Shown piece by piece: positions 7,501-41,891 of a stretch of 61,104 bases of DNA (the stretch's first letter is position 1; every line of letters begins with the position of its first letter). The DNA comes from Candidatus Woesebacteria bacterium. GTDB taxonomy: Bacteria > Patescibacteriota > Microgenomatia > UBA8517. The notes beneath the pieces were generated by a model, which was given only the letters and a program-made list of their open reading frames with translations, had not been told where the DNA came from and ran no database searches. The stretch is taken from NCBI GenBank assembly GCA_027347685.1, contig DAIEQM010000044.1:1-61104 (forward strand). The letters are read 5' to 3'. Made by a program: the position numbers and the translations under genes.

Positions 7501-7572
7501 AGGCCAGAGCGGGAATCGAACCCGCGCATGTCGGTTTTGCAGACCGAAGCGTTACCACTTCGCCATCTGGCC
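7501..7572 (-). tRNA. tRNA-Cys (anticodon GCA)
   Basis: The reverse complement folds as a cloverleaf. Acceptor GGCCAGA/TCTGGCC, anticodon stem TCGGT/ACCGA with loop CTGCAAA, T-arm GCGGG-TTCGATT-CCCGC, discriminator T. CCA is not fully encoded (TCCG follows). Confidence 0.9.
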
Positions 7573-16522: not shown

Positions 16523-16553
16523 CCTCAAACCTACGTAGCAGTGCTTTCAGATG

Positions 16554-16958
16554 TTACTGTGCTTGCTTCCACGGCGGGGTTTGGGTTGTCTCAATATCGG
16601 CGAGACGGAGAGACTTCAGTCTGTAAGTGCGAATACCCTCACCTTCGGGATCACAGCCACTGAGACCCAACACATCAGTATCTGCTTCGCCAATGCTCAG
16701 CGATGTGTACTCAATCGTTGCAAAGGCTTGAAACTCTTTATAGAGCGTAGCGTTTGCAATGACCGCTGGGTCTTTTGTGCAATATCCAGAGGTGATATCT
16801 GTTCTTACCCAAATGATGGTAGTGCCGCTCTTGCGCTGCTCAACGTTGGTAATAACGTCTGTGACGCTGCCGCCTGTTACGGCTTGCGCTCCTTGGCATC
16901 CTGCCAGAGCAAAAAGTGCTAACACGAGTAACACACCAATGCGGTAAGTGATCTTCAT
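16554..16958 (-). CDS. Putative lipoprotein (hypothetical)
   Basis: Signal peptide with lipobox MKITYRIGVLLVLALFALAGC. SD AAGGAGG lies 8 nt upstream. Confidence 0.55.
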   Translation of the reverse strand: MKITYRIGVLLVLALFALAGCQGAQAVTGGSVTDVITNVEQRKSGTTIIWVRTDITSGYCTKDPAVIANATLYKEFQAFATIEYTSLSIGEADTDVLGLSGCDPEGEGIRTYRLKSLRLADIETTQTPPWKQAQ

Positions 16959-17037: not shown

Positions 17038-19896
17038 ATGGAGAAAAAACTCAATACGTCACAGCTTGAAGCGGTTACTCATGGAGAAGGACCGCTTCTT
17101 ATTATTGCTGGTGCTGGAACGGGAAAAACAACCGTAATTACCGAGCGTGTTAAACACCTTATTTCTGAAGGTTTGGCCACGCCGTCTGAAATATTGGCTC
17201 TCACATTTACTGAAAAAGCAGCCAACGAAATGGAAGGAAGAATCGATGAAGCACTCCCCTTGGGATACGCACAAATGTGGGTAATGACCTTTCACAGTTT
17301 TTGTGACCGAATTTTGAGACAAGATGGGTTTCATATTGGGCTCGATACCAAGTTTCGCTTAATGACTACTGCAGATTCTCTTGATCTTCTAAAGAGAAAT
17401 TTATATTTGCTTGGACTTGATTATTTTGCCCCTCTGGGGAACCCTACCAAGTTTTTGAGCGGACTGTTGTCTCACTTCTCTCGACTCCAAGATGAAAACG
17501 TCACTCCTGATGAGTACCTCGATTGGGCTCAGAAATATGAACAAGAAAATGGTAATAAATCAGAGGAAGAAAAGCTCGAATCGTTGAAGTGGAAAGAGCT
17601 TTCTGAAGTCTACAAAAAATACGAAGAATTAAAAATCAAAAATTCGCTCTTTGATTTTGGTGATCTAATTACCAAAACAATATTGTTATTTGAGAAACGG
17701 TCCAATGTGCTTTTGGAATACCAAAAAAAGTTTAAATATATATTGGTTGATGAGTTTCAGGACACCAACTATGCTCAAAATAAATTGGTAACGCTGCTTA
17801 CCGGGAGAGATGGAAACATTACGGTTGTAGGAGATGATGATCAGAGCATTTATCGCTTCCGGGGCGCTGCAGTCTCCAATATGCTTCAATTTCGTGAACA
17901 TTTCCCAAGCACCAAAATTGTAACTTTGACTGACAATTATCGTTCAAAACAAACTATTTTGACCGCCGCTCATACCCTTATTTCACATAACAATCCAGAT
18001 CGATTGGAGGTAATAGAGAAAATTGATAAAAAGCTTGTTTCACATGTTGAGGGACTGGGGAAGATTGAACTTACAAATCCTCAAGAGAGTAGAGACGAGG
18101 CAGACTTTGTTTCAAAGAAAATACTTGAACTTAAAGACACATACGACTTTTCTGATTTTGCCGTCCTGGTGCGCGCAAATAATCACGCTGAAAGTTTTGT
18201 AAGAAGCTTTGAACAAACCGGTATCCCGTATCAGTTTTTAGGCCCCGGTAAATTATTTTCTGAGCTTGAAATTGTGGATCTGTTTTCATATCTGCGCGTT
18301 GTCGCTGATATTCACAACGATGCAGCGCTCTACCGGGTTCTCTCGTCTGAAGTTTTTGCAATAGACCCGCTTTCCCTTGCTAAAATGTCATCTAAAGCAC
18401 GCCATGAGCAATTATTCCTCTTTGACTCACTGGAGATTGACTCAACGGCTGAGAGCCCTGACTCTGAAAAAATTCTATCACTCCTCACCCTCATCACCGA
18501 TCATGTAAAACGATCTCGTGACGAGTCCATTATTTCACTTCTTCTCGAATATCTTGAAAAAAGTGGTCTGCGAGAGAATCTTATTAAGGAAGACTCTATG
18601 GAGTCATTGAAGAAAATTCAAAACATTGAAAAGTTCCTCGGAAAAATTAAATCGTTTGAAATCAATAACGCAAAAGCGTCATTCTCTGAGATTGTTGACT
18701 GGATCGATCTTCAAACTGAAATCAATGAGTCTCCTTCAGCCGCCGAAGTTGAAATAGGCGAGGAGGATAAGGTAAATATCCTCACAGTTCACTCTTCAAA
18801 AGGGCTTGAGTTTCCCGTAGTGTTTCTCGTAAACCTTGTGTCACAGCGCTTTCCCTCAATGGAGCGACGTGAGCAAATTCCTATTCCTGACGCTCTGATT
18901 CGTGAAGTATTGCCTTCGGGAGATTTTCATTTACAAGAGGAGCGCAGGCTTTTTTATGTAGGACTAACACGAGCAAAGAACGAAGTGTATTTAACTGGCG
19001 CAAAATTTTATGGCGATGGAAAAAGAGAGAAGAAATTGTCGCCTTTTGTAGTCGAAACATTGGGTGAGCTGCGACCCAATGAATTCAGCTCAAAAATACT
19101 TGAAAAAATAGAAGTTGTAAAGCAACATTCCCTGCCACAAAAATTCGCGTTAAAAAGTATTAGTTATTCGCAAATAGAAAAGTTCAAAGTGTGCCCTCTG
19201 CACTATAAACTAAATTATATTTTGAAGCTTCCCACTCCACCCTCAGCTGCACAAAGTTTTGGAGTGAGCTTCCATGCAACCTTAAAAGATTTTTATGACC
19301 ATGTTGCTTTGGGAAGTGAACCCACAAAGGCACTTCTCAACGACTTACTTAGCAAGAATTGGATCCGTGAAGGATATAGTTCAAAAGAACACCTAGACAA
19401 AACCTATCAAAAAGCGAGTAGCTTCTTGGAATACTACTTTGATACCTGGTTTGATAGTAAGACAAAACCGATTGCACTTGAGCAACCTTTCTCCTTTAGA
19501 ATTGAAGACCTTTCGGTAAAGGGAAAGATTGACCGTATCGATGAAACTCCAACCGGCATTCATATTATTGACTATAAAACCGGGAGCAATGCAATGACGC
19601 AAAAGGAAGCCGACTCGGCACTTCAGCTTTCTATCTATGCGCTCGCTGCGACTAAAATTCCTGAGGCTCCTTTTCATCGAAAGCCCACCGACATAACGCT
19701 CTCTTTGATGTATTTTGATACGAAAGAAATAGTAACAACACACCGAACTGCTACTCAGCTTAAAGAGGCTGAAGAAGAAATTTTGGATTGGGCGTTGAAG
19801 ATTTCTGAAAGCGACTTTAGTTGTAGTGGAAACTTTTTGTGTGGAAACTGCGAATATAAAAGTTATTGTGCCGCTTCTCTCAATTCTTCTGATTGA
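17038..19896 (+). CDS. UvrD/AddA-like SF1 helicase fused to a PD-(D/E)XK (Cas4/RecB-like) Fe-S nuclease
   Basis: Helicase motifs AGAGTGKT, LVDEFQDTN, VGDDDQSIYRFRGA, VHSSKGLEF and YVGLTRAK. C-terminal nuclease with GKIDRID...IIDYKTG plus Cys ligands (VCPLHY ... CSGNFLCGNCEYKSYC, a CX2CX5C pattern). Confidence 0.85.
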   Translation: MEKKLNTSQLEAVTHGEGPLLIIAGAGTGKTTVITERVKHLISEGLATPSEILALTFTEKAANEMEGRIDEALPLGYAQMWVMTFHSFCDRILRQDGFHIGLDTKFRLMTTADSLDLLKRNLYLLGLDYFAPLGNPTKFLSGLLSHFSRLQDENVTPDEYLDWAQKYEQENGNKSEEEKLESLKWKELSEVYKKYEELKIKNSLFDFGDLITKTILLFEKRSNVLLEYQKKFKYILVDEFQDTNYAQNKLVTLLTGRDGNITVVGDDDQSIYRFRGAAVSNMLQFREHFPSTKIVTLTDNYRSKQTILTAAHTLISHNNPDRLEVIEKIDKKLVSHVEGLGKIELTNPQESRDEADFVSKKILELKDTYDFSDFAVLVRANNHAESFVRSFEQTGIPYQFLGPGKLFSELEIVDLFSYLRVVADIHNDAALYRVLSSEVFAIDPLSLAKMSSKARHEQLFLFDSLEIDSTAESPDSEKILSLLTLITDHVKRSRDESIISLLLEYLEKSGLRENLIKEDSMESLKKIQNIEKFLGKIKSFEINNAKASFSEIVDWIDLQTEINESPSAAEVEIGEEDKVNILTVHSSKGLEFPVVFLVNLVSQRFPSMERREQIPIPDALIREVLPSGDFHLQEERRLFYVGLTRAKNEVYLTGAKFYGDGKREKKLSPFVVETLGELRPNEFSSKILEKIEVVKQHSLPQKFALKSISYSQIEKFKVCPLHYKLNYILKLPTPPSAAQSFGVSFHATLKDFYDHVALGSEPTKALLNDLLSKNWIREGYSSKEHLDKTYQKASSFLEYYFDTWFDSKTKPIALEQPFSFRIEDLSVKGKIDRIDETPTGIHIIDYKTGSNAMTQKEADSALQLSIYALAATKIPEAPFHRKPTDITLSLMYFDTKEIVTTHRTATQLKEAEEEILDWALKISESDFSCSGNFLCGNCEYKSYCAASLNSSD

Positions 19897-20066
19897 AAAA
19901 TTCTCATTTTGTCTCACAATGAAAACGGAAGTTTAATCACCCAAAGGAGTTAGTTCTCATGATTTCATGGAAATTATGTGCGACCAAAGGAGCCTTCCGC
20001 ATTACATTCTCGCTATACTAGGAAGGGGGTGATCATTTATTCTATCGACTTTCCGTGAGGAGAGTC

Positions 20067-20096
20067 GGGCCGGGTTTAACTCACCCGGTTTTTTAT
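20067..20096 (+). terminator. Intrinsic terminator closing unit A
   Basis: CCGGGT-ttaactc-ACCCGG followed by TTTTTT. Confidence 0.55.
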
Positions 20097-20099
20097 TTA

Positions 20100-20128
20100 T
20101 TGACACAAAAGTGTGTACGAAGTATAAA
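20100..20128 (+). promoter_or_regulatory. Promoter P1: TTGACA-17 nt-TATAAA
   Basis: TTGACA at 20100-20105 and TATAAA at 20123-20128. Starts 4 nt after the preceding terminator. Confidence 0.5.
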
Positions 20129-20134
20129 AAAGTA

Positions 20135-20378
20135 CCGTACCACACGAAAGGAGCAAGAAGTGTATTCGATACTCCGTGGTCAGAGTGTGAAAGGGTGTAA
20201 GACGAACATTCGTCGTATGAAGCATCCTTTAGCTGTTTAATTTCATTTGCGCTGATAATCAAAAAATTAAATAGTTAAATTTTTGCGATGAAAGTCGCCC
20301 CAACTCACTCTGAAGGTGACTGTGAAGCCGTGAGCTTCCAAAAGCATTGGGCGAGGAAACACCTCGCCCTTTCATTTG
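20135..20378 (+). ncRNA. Unit B: roughly 245-nt promoter/terminator-delimited transcript (candidate sRNA or micro-ORF mRNA)
   Basis: Bounded by P1 and the hairpin GGGCGAGG-aaaca-CCTCGCCC plus TTTCATTT (20349-20378). Contains a GAAA-tetraloop hairpin GCGAT-GAAA-GTCGC and an SD-led 26-codon GTG ORF (20160..20240). Confidence 0.3.
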
Positions 20379-20415
20379 TCAAAAAATTGACAAACTATGA
20401 GTTGTTTGATATAGT
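20376..20415 (+). promoter_or_regulatory. Promoter P2: TTGACA-17 nt-TATAGT, with the -35 embedded in an 18-bp perfect palindrome
   Basis: TTGTCAA-AAAA-TTGACAA (20376-20393). -35 at 20387-20392 and -10 at 20410-20415. Confidence 0.5.
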
Positions 20416-20423
20416 ACCCACAT

Positions 20424-20469
20424 AGCTGTTGGTCTCAGGTGTTCCTGACGCCCACTGCTCGTTTTTTTT
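20424..20469 (+). terminator. Terminator/attenuator hairpin immediately downstream of P2
   Basis: AGCTGTTGG...(inner TCAGG-tgtt-CCTGA)...CCCACTGCT, followed by cg plus eight T (20462-20469). Begins about 2 nt after the predicted TSS. Confidence 0.5.
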
Positions 20470-20903
20470 CGCCAATTAACCGGTTTTTTTAGAAGGGACG
20501 GTCAATTTGAAAGATCACATTCCTATTTGGGGGCAAACCCTGCTTGAATCTTTTTATATTGCCAACTGTGCTGATCTGACCGCCGCCGTGCTGCCCGGGC
20601 GCCCTGTGTAGGGCCAACTCCCCGGCTTCGGCTGTAATTGACAAAGAACGTTTGGGCCGCTAAGTGGATTGCGGCCCTTACACTATCGATAAGTCTGATT
20701 AACAAGGGGGAACCCGATTTGATTTACCGGTATTCATAGCTATTTAACTTACGATTTTCGAGGGCTTTGTCCCAATTAACGCCTTGAGTGGCGCCTTAAT
20801 TGTTCGACCCCAGGTCGAACGTAGACAAATCTCGGGTATTTAAATTCTTGCAAAGTCGTGGCTTGACCACCGCTTTGAGCTGGAAGCCTCGGAAGAGTCG
20901 AAC

Positions 20904-20951
20904 AGGTCTGTTCATCCGTTTCCTGTATCAGGAACGAACAGACCTCTTTTT
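20904..20951 (+). terminator. Intrinsic terminator closing unit C
   Basis: AGGTCTGTTC...(inner TTCCTG-tat-CAGGAA)...GAACAGACCT followed by cTTTTT. Confidence 0.6.
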
Positions 20952-20962
20952 GTGCCTTATAG

Positions 20963-20991
20963 TTGACACATTATGGGTGGTATGCTATAGT
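20963..20991 (+). promoter_or_regulatory. Promoter P3: TTGACA-17 nt-TGcTATAGT
   Basis: -35 at 20963-20968 and extended -10 at 20983-20991. Starts 12 nt after the unit C terminator. Confidence 0.55.
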
Positions 20992-20997
20992 ATCTCC

Positions 20998-21311
20998 ACT
21001 TGACCGCAAAAGTGAACCGCGGCAGGTTTCTCTGGAGGGCTAATGCCCGACAAGAAAAAAGGACCTCATCGGGTCCCACATTAAGTAATCAGCCTCGGCT
21101 GATACATAAACCGAGTCGCGGATGCGACAAAAAATTTGTTATCCACCACAAAGTGGATGCATCGGAGGAAGGTCCTTAAATCAAGCTCTGGATAAGATCC
21201 GTTGACCTTAATCTTTGCCGAATGAGGTGAAGGTAAGTCAGTCAAGGCTCCATCTCAACGATTTTCCTTCCACCTGTACGTTCGAGCCGCTTCGATGAGC
21301 GGCTCTTTTTT
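20998..21311 (+). ncRNA. Unit D: roughly 315-nt structured transcript, unclassified
   Basis: Five consecutive short hairpins separated by A-rich linkers: GGGC-taat-GCCC 21037-21048; GGACC/GGTCC 21061-21076; ATCAGC-ctcg-GCTGAT 21088-21103; GTCGC-ggat-GCGAC 21115-21128; ATCCAC-cacaaa-GTGGAT 21141-21158. Possible long-range pairing of GGAGGAAGG (21164-21172) with CCTTCCACC (21266-21274). No ORF longer than 13 codons with a start signal. Confidence 0.35.
21284..21311 (+). terminator. Intrinsic terminator closing unit D
   Basis: GAGCCGCT-tcgatg-AGCGGCTC followed by TTTTTT. The U-tract is on the plus strand only. Confidence 0.6.
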
Positions 21312-21316
21312 GTGGC

Positions 21317-22126
21317 TTACAGAGGCAATCTCCACTTGGTGAAGCAGCCAGGATATTCAATAGCTACTCCCCCAAAGCTTTTCTTGAAGTGCGTAAACCC
21401 TTTCCATTTTTCATTTGGAAAACGCTCGTCATAAATTCCTTCAAAATCAAAGATCTTTGCTTTATTGCGTTGAGCCCACTGAATGCCACTCCAAAGGACT
21501 TTATACTGAATAAGGCTCTTCCGGGCAAAATCGTCAGTAAACCCTACCCAGTAATAACACGTGCTGTCTGCCACTAAAAACATGGCTCCTGAGGTATGAA
21601 ATTTATTCATAATAATCACCATATTTTTGCCAAATGCATCTTTGAACGCTTGTAGTTCGGAAAGAGGCAGTACATGCCGTTTATGTCCGACAGCTTCTTT
21701 CCATGCCTTTCTGAACGTTTCTATTTCTTGCGATTCATACACGACGAGTTTCTCTGACTTTCGAATTGAATAGCGCGCATCCTTTTTCATTTGTGACAAT
21801 ACTTTTTGGAGCGGCAGTGAAATATCGAGTTGCAAAGTTTTAGTGGGAAGGTATGGAGTGTTTGACAGTCTATATCCGGCTATGCCTAAAAGATTTCGAG
21901 CTTTTTTTGTTAACACTTCTGGCTCGATAATGATTTGAAAAACGCGAAATTTTTTACACAAAAAATCAATGTCTGAAAGCTGAAAATCTCTCGTTCGTTG
22001 GAGCTTAATAGCTGAACCTAAAATAGGAATTTTTTTTATGAAATATTGGCGATTTTTGTAATCGATCACTTCCCATCCGATTTTTCTCAAAAACGCTCCA
22101 TATTGACTCGTTTGCCGAAGATCCAT
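21317..22126 (-). CDS. FemAB-family peptidoglycan aminoacyltransferase (paralogue 2)
   Basis: FLVADSTCYYWVGFTDDFARKSLIQYKVLWSGIQWAQRNKAKIFDFEGIYD is a FemABX-like C-terminal core. Directly abuts the upstream paralogue. Confidence 0.7.
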   Translation of the reverse strand: MDLRQTSQYGAFLRKIGWEVIDYKNRQYFIKKIPILGSAIKLQRTRDFQLSDIDFLCKKFRVFQIIIEPEVLTKKARNLLGIAGYRLSNTPYLPTKTLQLDISLPLQKVLSQMKKDARYSIRKSEKLVVYESQEIETFRKAWKEAVGHKRHVLPLSELQAFKDAFGKNMVIIMNKFHTSGAMFLVADSTCYYWVGFTDDFARKSLIQYKVLWSGIQWAQRNKAKIFDFEGIYDERFPNEKWKGFTHFKKSFGGVAIEYPGCFTKWRLPL

Positions 22127-41254: not shown

Positions 41255-41312
41255 ACTTCAAAAAAAAGAGTATACTTTTGGCTAATAGGGACAGAAAAGG
41301 AAGGTCTCTCTT

Positions 41313-41546
41313 GTGATACCAATTTGGGTTTGGGTAGAAAATGGGATTGTGGTGAAGGCGGAGGTTTATTCTAATGGACGGAACAAGTCTTTAACTCATC
41401 TTTTGGGACGAAGTTTAGAATCTGCCGAAAAATCACTCCAAAAGAAAGATTGGATTCACAAATCTGGTCGTGATTTTTTTACAACCCCTGGAAACGGGGC
41501 CGCGTGTTTTGAATTCGAACCAAAGGCCGCTCCCGCTTATGCATAG
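41313..41546 (+). CDS. Hypothetical small protein
   Basis: GTG start preceded by AAGGAAGG. Followed by a terminator. Weakly similar to the next small ORF. Confidence 0.35.
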   Translation: MIPIWVWVENGIVVKAEVYSNGRNKSLTHLLGRSLESAEKSLQKKDWIHKSGRDFFTTPGNGAACFEFEPKAAPAYA

Positions 41547-41558
41547 TTTTTTTCTTTA

Positions 41559-41585
41559 AAAGAGGGTTGTCCCGCCCTCTTTTTA
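41559..41585 (+). terminator. Intrinsic terminator
   Basis: AGAGGG-ttgtcccg-CCCTCT followed by TTTT. Confidence 0.5.
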
Positions 41586-41633
41586 TTTCTGCTATTCTTC
41601 AATACCTAGGGTTTTAGTTTAAGGAGCTACAGT

Positions 41634-41849
41634 ATGACGGAGAAGCCTGATATCAACGTTATAATTCTGGAAGGAGGAATTGTAGTCGAGAATGCGTTCA
41701 ATGAAGCCTTCCCCGAGATAAAGGGAAACAAACTGACTCATGCGGTGAATGCACTGAGGTCATATGGATGGAGAGAAACCGATGAAATGATTGACCCAAT
41801 TACAAAGAGCGGCTGGGTTGCCTTTTCTAAGAACCCGATACCGCATTGA
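41634..41849 (+). CDS. Hypothetical small protein
   Basis: SD AAGGAG lies 7 nt upstream of the ATG. Followed by a strong bidirectional hairpin. Confidence 0.4.
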   Translation: MTEKPDINVIILEGGIVVENAFNEAFPEIKGNKLTHAVNALRSYGWRETDEMIDPITKSGWVAFSKNPIPH

Positions 41850-41853
41850 TATG

Positions 41854-41890
41854 AAAAGGGGGAGACAATGTGTCTCCCCCTTTATTTTTG
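41854..41890. terminator. Bidirectional intrinsic terminator
   Basis: AAAA-GGGGGAGACA-atg-TGTCTCCCCC-TTTATTTTT. Confidence 0.7.
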
Positions 41891-41891
41891 A

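Follow-up and report, generated by a model that had tools for sequence, protein, structure and literature searches.

What does a small bacterial genome keep in a gap of 1420 bp in which gene callers place nothing? The question is raised by positions 19897–21316 of contig DAIEQM010000044.1 (GenBank assembly GCA_027347685.1, Candidatus Woesebacteria bacterium), a contig analysed here over a stretch of 61,104 nucleotides that we call the window. The gap, hereafter the island, lies between an open reading frame (ORF) for a helicase-nuclease and the 3' end of a short, convergent FemAB paralogue. Genomes of the candidate phyla radiation (CPR)/Patescibacteria measure ~1 Mb and are tightly packed; a conserved island of 1–1.5 kb carrying the strongest promoters of its region is therefore unlikely to be idle. 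An initial annotation, made from the sequence alone, had divided the island into four plus-strand modules, each running from a promoter to a terminator, and had taken these units for stand-alone structured non-coding RNAs. The modules are real, and they are kept as such among relatives. We propose, with a probability of roughly 0.55, that the island is a lineage-specific row of autonomous mini-genes, i.e., short, stable and strongly expressed mRNAs for micro-peptides. The island itself is real, conserved and previously undescribed, and it adds new families of a known kind.

Syntenic junctions were recovered with helicase homologues (52–75% identity; labelled by source as Candidatus Woesebacteria, Microgenomates or Patescibacteria) and by one promoter-pattern scan. 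The comparison set comprises the window and 11 other genomes (L006, L007, L008, L009, L010, L012, L080 and L090–L093), in about four subclades. The helicase search of genome contigs returned 36 loci with 1 close relative, and blastn revealed no island homology; the search of metagenome contigs with the pattern of promoter P2 returned 41 loci, of which L080 alone was relevant. Same-species contigs (L001–L005) are identical or nearly so and were uninformative, and identical contigs occur in the metagenome-assembled genomes GCA_021824385.1 and GCA_021840185.1. The source organism belongs to the CPR and not to the Firmicutes.

Collecting syntenic regions from relatives, a check suggested with the initial annotation, revealed the same layout in each of the 11 other genomes: a non-coding island of 339–1503 bp adjoins the 3' end of the short FemAB paralogue and holds 2–3 consensus plus-strand promoters, with a terminator before each. 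Over the 12 islands there are 19 strong promoters on the plus strand versus 4 weak, non-conserved ones on the minus strand. The order of the units is constant in the 12 genomes, over helicase identities from 52% to 100%: a P1/mp1 unit (−10 element TATAAATAC), a P2 unit (TTGACAAA(C/A)TA...) and a third unit. The window's unit 1 was found in the closest subclade only. In this comparison, the content of the island is conserved inside the clade, and the conserved entities are promoters, Shine-Dalgarno (SD) sites, short ORFs, terminators and their fixed order.

The strongest coding evidence comes from unit 2, whose 26-codon ORF, mp1, encodes an Arg/Lys-rich, hydrophilic peptide (isoelectric point (pI) about 11, net charge +6). 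Orthologues of mp1 are found in L006, L008, L010, L012 and L090–L093, with a peptide of 26–29 aa (MANKRNLRKAGDWLRRTPSIRRMKFS in L006, MLYHLRWTTGAKGCKADIRRMKVPLAVI in L008, MYADCFEPNKGLRRTGLIRRSMWPQEAYS in L090 and MYAMSVDHKGLRRTGLIRRSMWPRKLVF in L091/L092) and 14-codon versions in L010 and L012 (MIRRSKFPRAVYLQ and MLPRRSKFPRLVIK). Codons were compared in three independent pairs (window–L008, L091–L090 and L010–L012). The ratio of synonymous to non-synonymous differences is 14:4 in frame, versus 2:15 and 0:16 in the other frames (sum 2:31; Fisher p = 2e-7). Moreover, the motif KG(C/L)(K/R)..IRR(M/S)(K/M).P is kept between subclades despite diverged DNA. This frame-specific synonymous excess is accompanied by an SD, a start codon and a kept frame, as in a protein-coding small ORF, and on this comparative evidence we regard unit 2 firmly as a micro-protein gene. 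The idea of purely non-coding RNAs thus fails for unit 2, since it shows the codon-like substitution that the initial annotation had itself named as a refutation.

The mp1 region varies in other ways among the relatives. In L010 (7923–7975) and L012 (3875–3933), an in-frame TGA stands where the window and L008 have Cys TGT and L091 has Leu (K G stop R S V I R R S K...), and two codons past the TGA a GTG opens a new ORF of 14 codons, with AAAGGGTGA as its SD. This TGA could reflect truncation, read-through or recoding. In L090–L093, an extended SD (AAAGGA.GGTGATCC), akin to the unit 1 sequence AAGGGGGTGATC, precedes the mp1 start codon.

For units 3 and 4, also held to be non-coding in the initial annotation, codon-like substitution is present but weaker. 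The N-terminal codons of the unit 3 ORF (M.RFKPI.G; L007, L008 and L009) show 6:4 differences in frame versus 1:16 off frame (p = 0.004) when combined with a pair from subclade C, an imperfect combination because the subclade C ORF lies at a different position in its unit. Whether unit 3 encodes a peptide of ~34 residues is uncertain. The unit 4 ORF, compared between the window and L007, shows 4:2 in frame versus 0:9 off frame (p = 0.011), although several of its non-synonymous changes are also compensatory for a hairpin, so that selection at the RNA level could mimic part of the coding signal. Unit 4 probably makes a 13-residue peptide, to judge from its codons; the counterparts are MPCQKKKGVHRAPH in L007 and MPNRDKGPHRVPH in L008, and the peptides of the third unit are MKRTRVRHGAMY in L091 and MRTRIRHNAVF in L010. 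Both the hairpin around the start codon of unit 4 and the hairpin inside its ORF are retained through compensatory changes, and a G(A/G)GGAAGG motif of this unit is also present in L007, L008 and L091–L093.

Unit 1 behaves differently. For its ORF, the coding test gave no signal: codon differences were 3:15 in frame and 4:33 off frame (p = 0.67). The SD and the length (20 codons in three genomes) are all that is retained of the ORF; the inner helix CCTTCC/GGAAGG is kept with compensatory change in L008 and L007. The ORF sequence thus appears not to be under selection, and unit 1, doubtful as a mini-gene, may act only as RNA. Its promoter-like site is weak; the −10-like CTCACAAT is retained in L007 and reads TTCAGAAT in L008, and the unit may be the 3' untranslated region (UTR) of the helicase mRNA instead of a transcript of its own. 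Directly after its stop codon stands AAGGGGGTGATC, the sole sequence on either strand of the window with at most one mismatch (11/12 positions) to AAGGAGGTGATC, taken here as complementary to the 3' end of 16S rRNA.

The initial view that these are structured RNAs stands as far as structure is concerned: hairpins of the untranslated parts are kept by compensatory changes, and it is the non-coding part of the claim that is contradicted by the coding signal of unit 2. Whole-unit folds are more stable than shuffled sequences (z = −2.6, −4.2, −2.4 and −5.8 for units 1–4). Hairpins occur at equivalent positions with different sequences, three in the 3' UTR of unit 2, four in the 3' domain of unit 3 and others in units 1 and 4; as the MAFFT/RNAalifold alignments of units 1 and 4 (3–4 sequences) were noisy, hairpins were instead checked one by one by folding. 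The 3' domain of unit 3 shows compensatory changes among the window, L006 and L008 (TTCGACC/GGTCGAA versus TCTAGCC/GGTTAGA, and CGCC/GGCG versus CCGC/GCGG). At the position of the unit 3 5' hairpin, the other genomes have a hairpin of different sequence. Moreover, the plus strand of the island is rich in SD-like pentamers (9.9/kb versus 5.0/kb in the window), a count reached by 23 of 2000 shuffles.

These data bear on whether the units could be four stand-alone structured non-coding RNAs after all, with ORFs and SD motifs that are incidental or serve as RNA motifs (30S-binding stabilisers or pseudo-SD helices). We give this explanation a minor though real share of the probability. The stable folds and the compensatory changes that preserve hairpins in units 1–4 speak for it, as do the SD-like sequences of units 1 and 4, which pair with anti-SD-like ones and precede no start codon, the spread in ORF length at equivalent positions (2 to 36 codons), and the motif AAAGGGTG(T)AAG, which is retained in L010, L012 and L080 despite a broken long mp1 frame. 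It does not account for a synonymous excess in mp1 that is confined to one frame, nor for a peptide motif that outlasts DNA divergence. Furthermore, the sole large covarying domain is restricted: a covariance model (R1) of the unit 3 3' domain (20686–20900, ~215 nt) finds members in the window, L006 and L008 and nowhere else. This extensive structure is thus an appendage confined to a small group. Promoters, SDs and ORFs, in contrast, are found in all genomes, which makes the ORF-bearing 5' parts the core that is conserved.

A positive RNA identity is likewise missing, as no Rfam family matches, riboswitches and large ornate RNAs included. In the window, Rfam 15 at gathering thresholds gave only a tRNA-Cys at 7501–7572 and nothing in the island; at E ≤ 10 on 19800–21400, the best hits scored 13–18 bits versus thresholds of 40–75; the syntenic islands of six relatives gave no Rfam match, and ARAGORN predicted no tmRNA. 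The initial impression that nothing resembles RNase P, tmRNA, SRP or 6S RNA is thus corroborated. Literature searches on non-coding or structured RNAs of CPR/Patescibacteria brought up nothing similar. A sub-threshold match to Rfam n00280 ('C. difficile sRNA included into helicase gene'; 35–45 bits versus 65) at L006:2867–2966, with equivalents in L008, L009, L010 and L012, was rejected as spurious: the matches sit in UvrD-type helicase coding sequence and most likely reflect conserved coding sequence.

Other observations weigh against the proposed row of mini-genes. The mp1 frame is broken in L010 and L012, with the 14-codon version left, and L080 retains the RNA motif AAAGGGTGTAAG without the mp1 peptide. 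No homologue of mp1 was found in Pfam, NCBIfam, PDB or 1.84 billion representative proteins. In L090–L093, the ORF at the unit 3 position is reduced to ATG-NNN-TGA, 2 codons; the unit 3 peptide is therefore not the conserved entity across the whole clade. The missing coding signal of unit 1 and the compensatory changes in unit 4 point the same way, and the sample is small: 12 genomes from about four subclades.

The two-codon ORF has a setting of its own: its position is kept in four genomes, where the window has the 34-codon ORF, and in these islands (e.g., island 395–415 of L091, about L091:6775–6795) a strong SD, AAGGAGG, is followed by ATG ACC TGA, ATG TTC TGA or ATG TTG TGA.

The junction itself is variable. 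In 9 of 18 more distant Microgenomates loci, helicase and femAB lie 11–14 bp apart and the island is absent, and some of the remaining distant loci hold unrelated small genes there. The island was therefore acquired in this lineage, at a convergent junction that is prone to insertions and forms a hot spot for accessory content. Genes inserted at L090:6347–7173, L091:6828–7136 and L092:4104–5557 encode hypothetical proteins (102, 126, 212 and 232 aa) and a Transgly_assoc protein; of these, the 102-aa gene call of L091 overlaps an island promoter and is probably spurious. Even where genes are inserted on the helicase side, the island always adjoins the short FemAB paralogue.

Such variability would be expected of neutral debris, that is, of decayed gene fragments or mobile-element remnants with chance promoters, and the junction does vary in size (339 to 2423 bp) and content, with unrelated genes in places and 11–14 bp in half of the distant loci. 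Nevertheless, we consider this very unlikely, because order, promoters, terminators and mp1 are kept down to 52% helicase identity. No repeats or second copies of the island occur elsewhere in the window, and its longer ORFs match nothing in Pfam. Blastn against phages and plasmids returned nothing, and viral contigs gave 32 unrelated promoter matches; with no phage, plasmid or viral-contig homologue found, the island does not qualify as cargo of a mobile element, phage or plasmid.

As for promoters, the pattern TTGAC[AT]-N16-18-TA[TAC]A[ATG][AT] was searched over both strands of the whole window. It occurs at 6 sites, 3 of which lie inside the island, where ~0.07 would be expected (the island is 1.2% of the searched sequence). 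P1, P2 and P3 are thus where the initial annotation had placed them and make up 3 of the 6 best sigma-70 matches of the window; comparison with related islands shows P2 to be the island's most conserved element. The four hairpin/U-tract terminators were also recovered (T3 by folding), as was the early hairpin with U8, ending at 20469, behind a predicted '48-nt' product of unit 3. With consensus elements, spacings of 16–18 nt and a hairpin plus U-tract, the modules are predicted from their sequence to be independent sigma-70 units.

On the minus strand, a terminator-like hairpin (GGGACCCGATGAGGTCC) with a T-run lies at 21060–21077, inside the unit 4 ORF. It is retained in L007 via compensatory changes and is weaker in L008. 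This hairpin could end the transcript of the femAB operon ~260 nt past the stop codon, and the tail would then be antisense to unit 4.

The units might also be leader-peptide cassettes, in which translation of sensor or arrest peptides governs termination at the next hairpin/U-tract and would in this way set read-through to the following unit or antisense transcription into the convergent femAB operon. Unit 3 has its early hairpin and U8 ahead of SD and ORF; in L090–L093, a short ORF overlaps an SD-sequestering hairpin with a U-run and is followed by the start-stop mini-ORF. The conserved Pro and Arg motifs (IRR..xP, GPHRVPH), the weak U-tract of T2 and the position of T4 next to the femAB stop codon fit as well. 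We nevertheless judge such cassettes unlikely. A consensus promoter of its own follows each unit, so read-through control is unneeded, and no plus-strand structural gene lies downstream, in agreement with the initial annotation. A profile comparison (hhalign) of mp1 with the arrest peptide SpeFL gave a probability of 1.7%, and the units thus do not class with attenuator or arrest peptides of the SpeFL or TnaC type.

The constant neighbour of the island and the fold of unit 1 suggest two further functions, which we regard as highly improbable: the units could be type I toxin-antitoxin modules, or they could encode precursor peptides that are modified by the FemAB-like aminoacyl-tRNA transferases encoded next to them. 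The long-range 5'-3' helix of unit 1 encloses SD and ORF, like many type I toxin mRNAs, and the island abuts the short FemAB paralogue even next to helicase-side insertions. Against toxins, mp1 and the peptides at the unit 4 position are hydrophilic and basic (grand average of hydropathy +0.09, in one mp1 orthologue, to −1.9; pI 9–12) and do not resemble membrane peptides, the unit 1 and unit 3 peptides are mildly hydrophobic only, and the 12 islands share no conserved minus-strand promoter; the features of a type I system are thus not found. Against FemAB substrates, the island is convergent with femAB and not co-transcribed with it, and most relatives have the femAB pair without the island.

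The coordinates of all features are collected in Table 1.

Table 1. Features of the island and its flanks, in window coordinates
Feature	Position	Strand	Description
UvrD + PD-(D/E)XK helicase-nuclease ORF	end 19896		Left flank of the island
Weak promoter-like site, unit 1	19893–19920	+	TTGAAA-16-CACAAT; 9/12 matches
Unit 1 core	19936–20034	+	Predicted fold: 5' arm ATCACCC (19936–19942) pairs with GGGTGAT (20027–20033)
Unit 1 SD	19943–19949	+	AAAGGAG; inside the core helix
Unit 1 ORF	19959–20021	+	20 codons, SD-preceded
AAGGGGGTGATC	20023–20034	+	12 nt immediately downstream of the unit 1 stop; not followed by a canonical start codon
Terminator T1	20067–20096	+	Hairpin/U-tract; kept in L007 and L008
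Promoter P1	20100–20128	+	TTGACA-17-TATAAA; type TTGAC.-N17-TATAAATAC recurs among relatives
mp1 ORF (unit 2)	20160–20240	+	26 codons, GTG start; SD AAAGGAG at 20147–20153; encodes MYSILRGQSVKGCKTNIRRMKHPLAV
Unit 2 3' UTR	20241–20378	+	Three small hairpins, then T2; hairpins kept in L008 with different sequences
Terminator T2	20349–20378	+	Hairpin with weak U-tract
Promoter P2	20387–20415	+	TTGACAAACTA...TGATATAGT; TTGACA-17-TATAGT, TG extended −10; 11/12 matches
5' hairpin, then U8 (unit 3)	20424–20470	+	Possible early terminator/attenuator, or else 5' stabiliser
Unit 3 small ORF	20507–20611	+	34 codons, TTG start; SD AGAAGGGA
Unit 3 structured 3' domain	20612–20903	+	C(UUCG)G loop, GGGCCGC/GCGGCCC hairpin, three further hairpins
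Terminator T3	20904–20951	+	Fold −20 kcal/mol; U-run 20947–20951
Promoter P3	20963–20991	+	TTGACA-17-TGcTATAGT; 11/12 matches; kept in L007 and L008
Unit 4 small ORF	21043–21084	+	13 codons, MPDKKKGPHRVPH; SD GGAGGG and start codon within a small hairpin
Unit 4 structured 3' region	21085–21283	+	Hairpin ATCCAC/GTGGAT; kept with changes in L007 and L008
Long-range pseudo-SD helix, unit 4	21164–21172 with 21266–21274	+	GGAGGAAGG with CCTTCCACC
Terminator T4	21284–21311	+	Hairpin/U-tract; 5 nt separate it from the FemAB stop codon
Short FemAB paralogue, 269 aa	stop end 21317	−	Right flank, convergent with the island

In its surroundings, the island stands out by size. All four units lie head-to-tail on the plus strand, and the gap of 1420 bp, correctly delimited in the initial annotation, is the largest gene-free one of the window; other large gaps measure about 640, 470, 430 and 330 bp (read from the ORF list), so that intergenic distances described as mostly under 120 bp are so roughly, not strictly. 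No ORF of at least 100 aa lies between the helicase-nuclease and the FemAB paralogue, and the longest present on either strand (51–86 aa) have no Pfam match and span promoters or terminators. The claim that the gap holds no protein-like ORF fails all the same, given the short, SD-preceded ORFs described above.

Two other regions of the window deserve mention. The second-largest gap (41255–41891) holds two terminator-bounded ORFs of ~70–75 codons, each with a good SD, which resemble ordinary small protein genes under the 100-aa listing threshold. Between RmuC and the helicase (16551–16958), ORFs of 123 aa (plus strand) and 134 aa (minus strand) overlap on opposite strands; the 123-aa ORF has no Pfam match, and public gene calls picked the 134-aa ORF antisense to the helicase (plus strand of the reversed loci L001/L002).

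How would a row of mini-genes work? In sequence, the four units are built alike, from a sigma-70 promoter close to consensus through a 5' hairpin, a strong SD and a very short ORF (20, 26, 34 and 13 codons in units 1–4) to a structured 3' part and an intrinsic terminator. In view of this shared build, the units are most likely short, stable and strongly expressed mRNAs for micro-peptides overlooked by gene callers. Unit 2 would give the 26–29-residue mp1, and units 3 and 4 would give peptides of ~34 and 13 residues, whereas unit 1 would perhaps act as RNA only. Local helices that pair SD-like with anti-SD-like sequence and the 3' hairpins would jointly modulate translation and shield the transcripts. 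We infer that the units are transcribed and translated and that their basic peptides act on nucleic acid or on the ribosome. For mp1, binding of nucleic acid or the ribosome seems likely, a guess from composition, as the peptides are basic and hydrophilic.

A bolder version would make the conserved set of mp1 unit, P2 unit and third unit a translation-directed system of this CPR clade, in which highly expressed basic micro-peptides bind or stall the ribosome and companion RNAs mimic the SD/anti-SD interaction almost perfectly. The pairings AAGGGGGTGATC/ATCACCC and GGAGGAAGG/CCTTCCACC would then capture or release 30S subunits. We think this improbable; if true, bacteria whose genomes and ribosomal protein sets are reduced would have a novel form of regulation at the ribosome, and peptides or SD-mimic RNAs acting on the ribosome would offer a view into translation control of uncultured symbionts. 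The preferred mini-gene reading has consequences as well: conserved micro-protein genes of these organisms escape gene callers and protein databases, and islands that are poor in ORFs and rich in promoters should be checked for codon-level selection before they are filed as non-coding RNA.

Several known systems share features with the island. Like the very small basic ribosomal proteins Thx and bL36, mp1 (26–29 aa) combines a very high pI with a strong promoter and SD, and its short KG.RRT string is reminiscent of Thx. The profiles did not support either identity (hhalign probabilities of 2.9% for Thx and 0.7% for bL36; no Pfam, NCBIfam or PDB match). Moreover, mp1 is unlike a core ribosomal protein, because it occurs in a single small clade and is shortened in L010 and L012.

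Leader and arrest peptides (trpL-type attenuators, TnaC and SpeFL) resemble the units in their very short, SD-preceded ORFs beside a hairpin/U-tract, in their Arg/Pro motifs and in the start-stop mini-ORF of subclade C. In contrast, the units have no regulated gene in the same transcript, each has its own promoter, and the comparison with the SpeFL profile was negative. STAB-SD-type mRNA stabilisers are SD-like sequences that bind 30S without initiating. The sequence AAGGGGGTGATC resembles them in its 11/12 match to AAGGAGGTGATC, the presumed 16S 3'-end complement, with no canonical start codon following; unlike them, it directly follows a stop codon, sits in the 3' half of its unit (unit 1) instead of close to a 5' end, and has a predicted pairing partner in the upstream ATCACCC.

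The closest comparison is with unannotated small-ORF genes and dual-function small RNAs, such as SgrS/SgrT, RNAIII/hld and SR1/SR1P. Like these, the units are short and monocistronic, with their own promoter and terminator, a strong SD, an ORF of <50 codons and conserved structure outside the ORF, and their ORFs are missed by gene callers and protein databases. No significant complementarity to base-pairing targets, as a dual-function small RNA would have, was found within the rest of the window. The island, whose host is a CPR bacterium, shares no sequence similarity with any of the described RNA or protein families searched, and it differs from all of them in its arrangement, with three to four such units placed head-to-tail in a fixed order.

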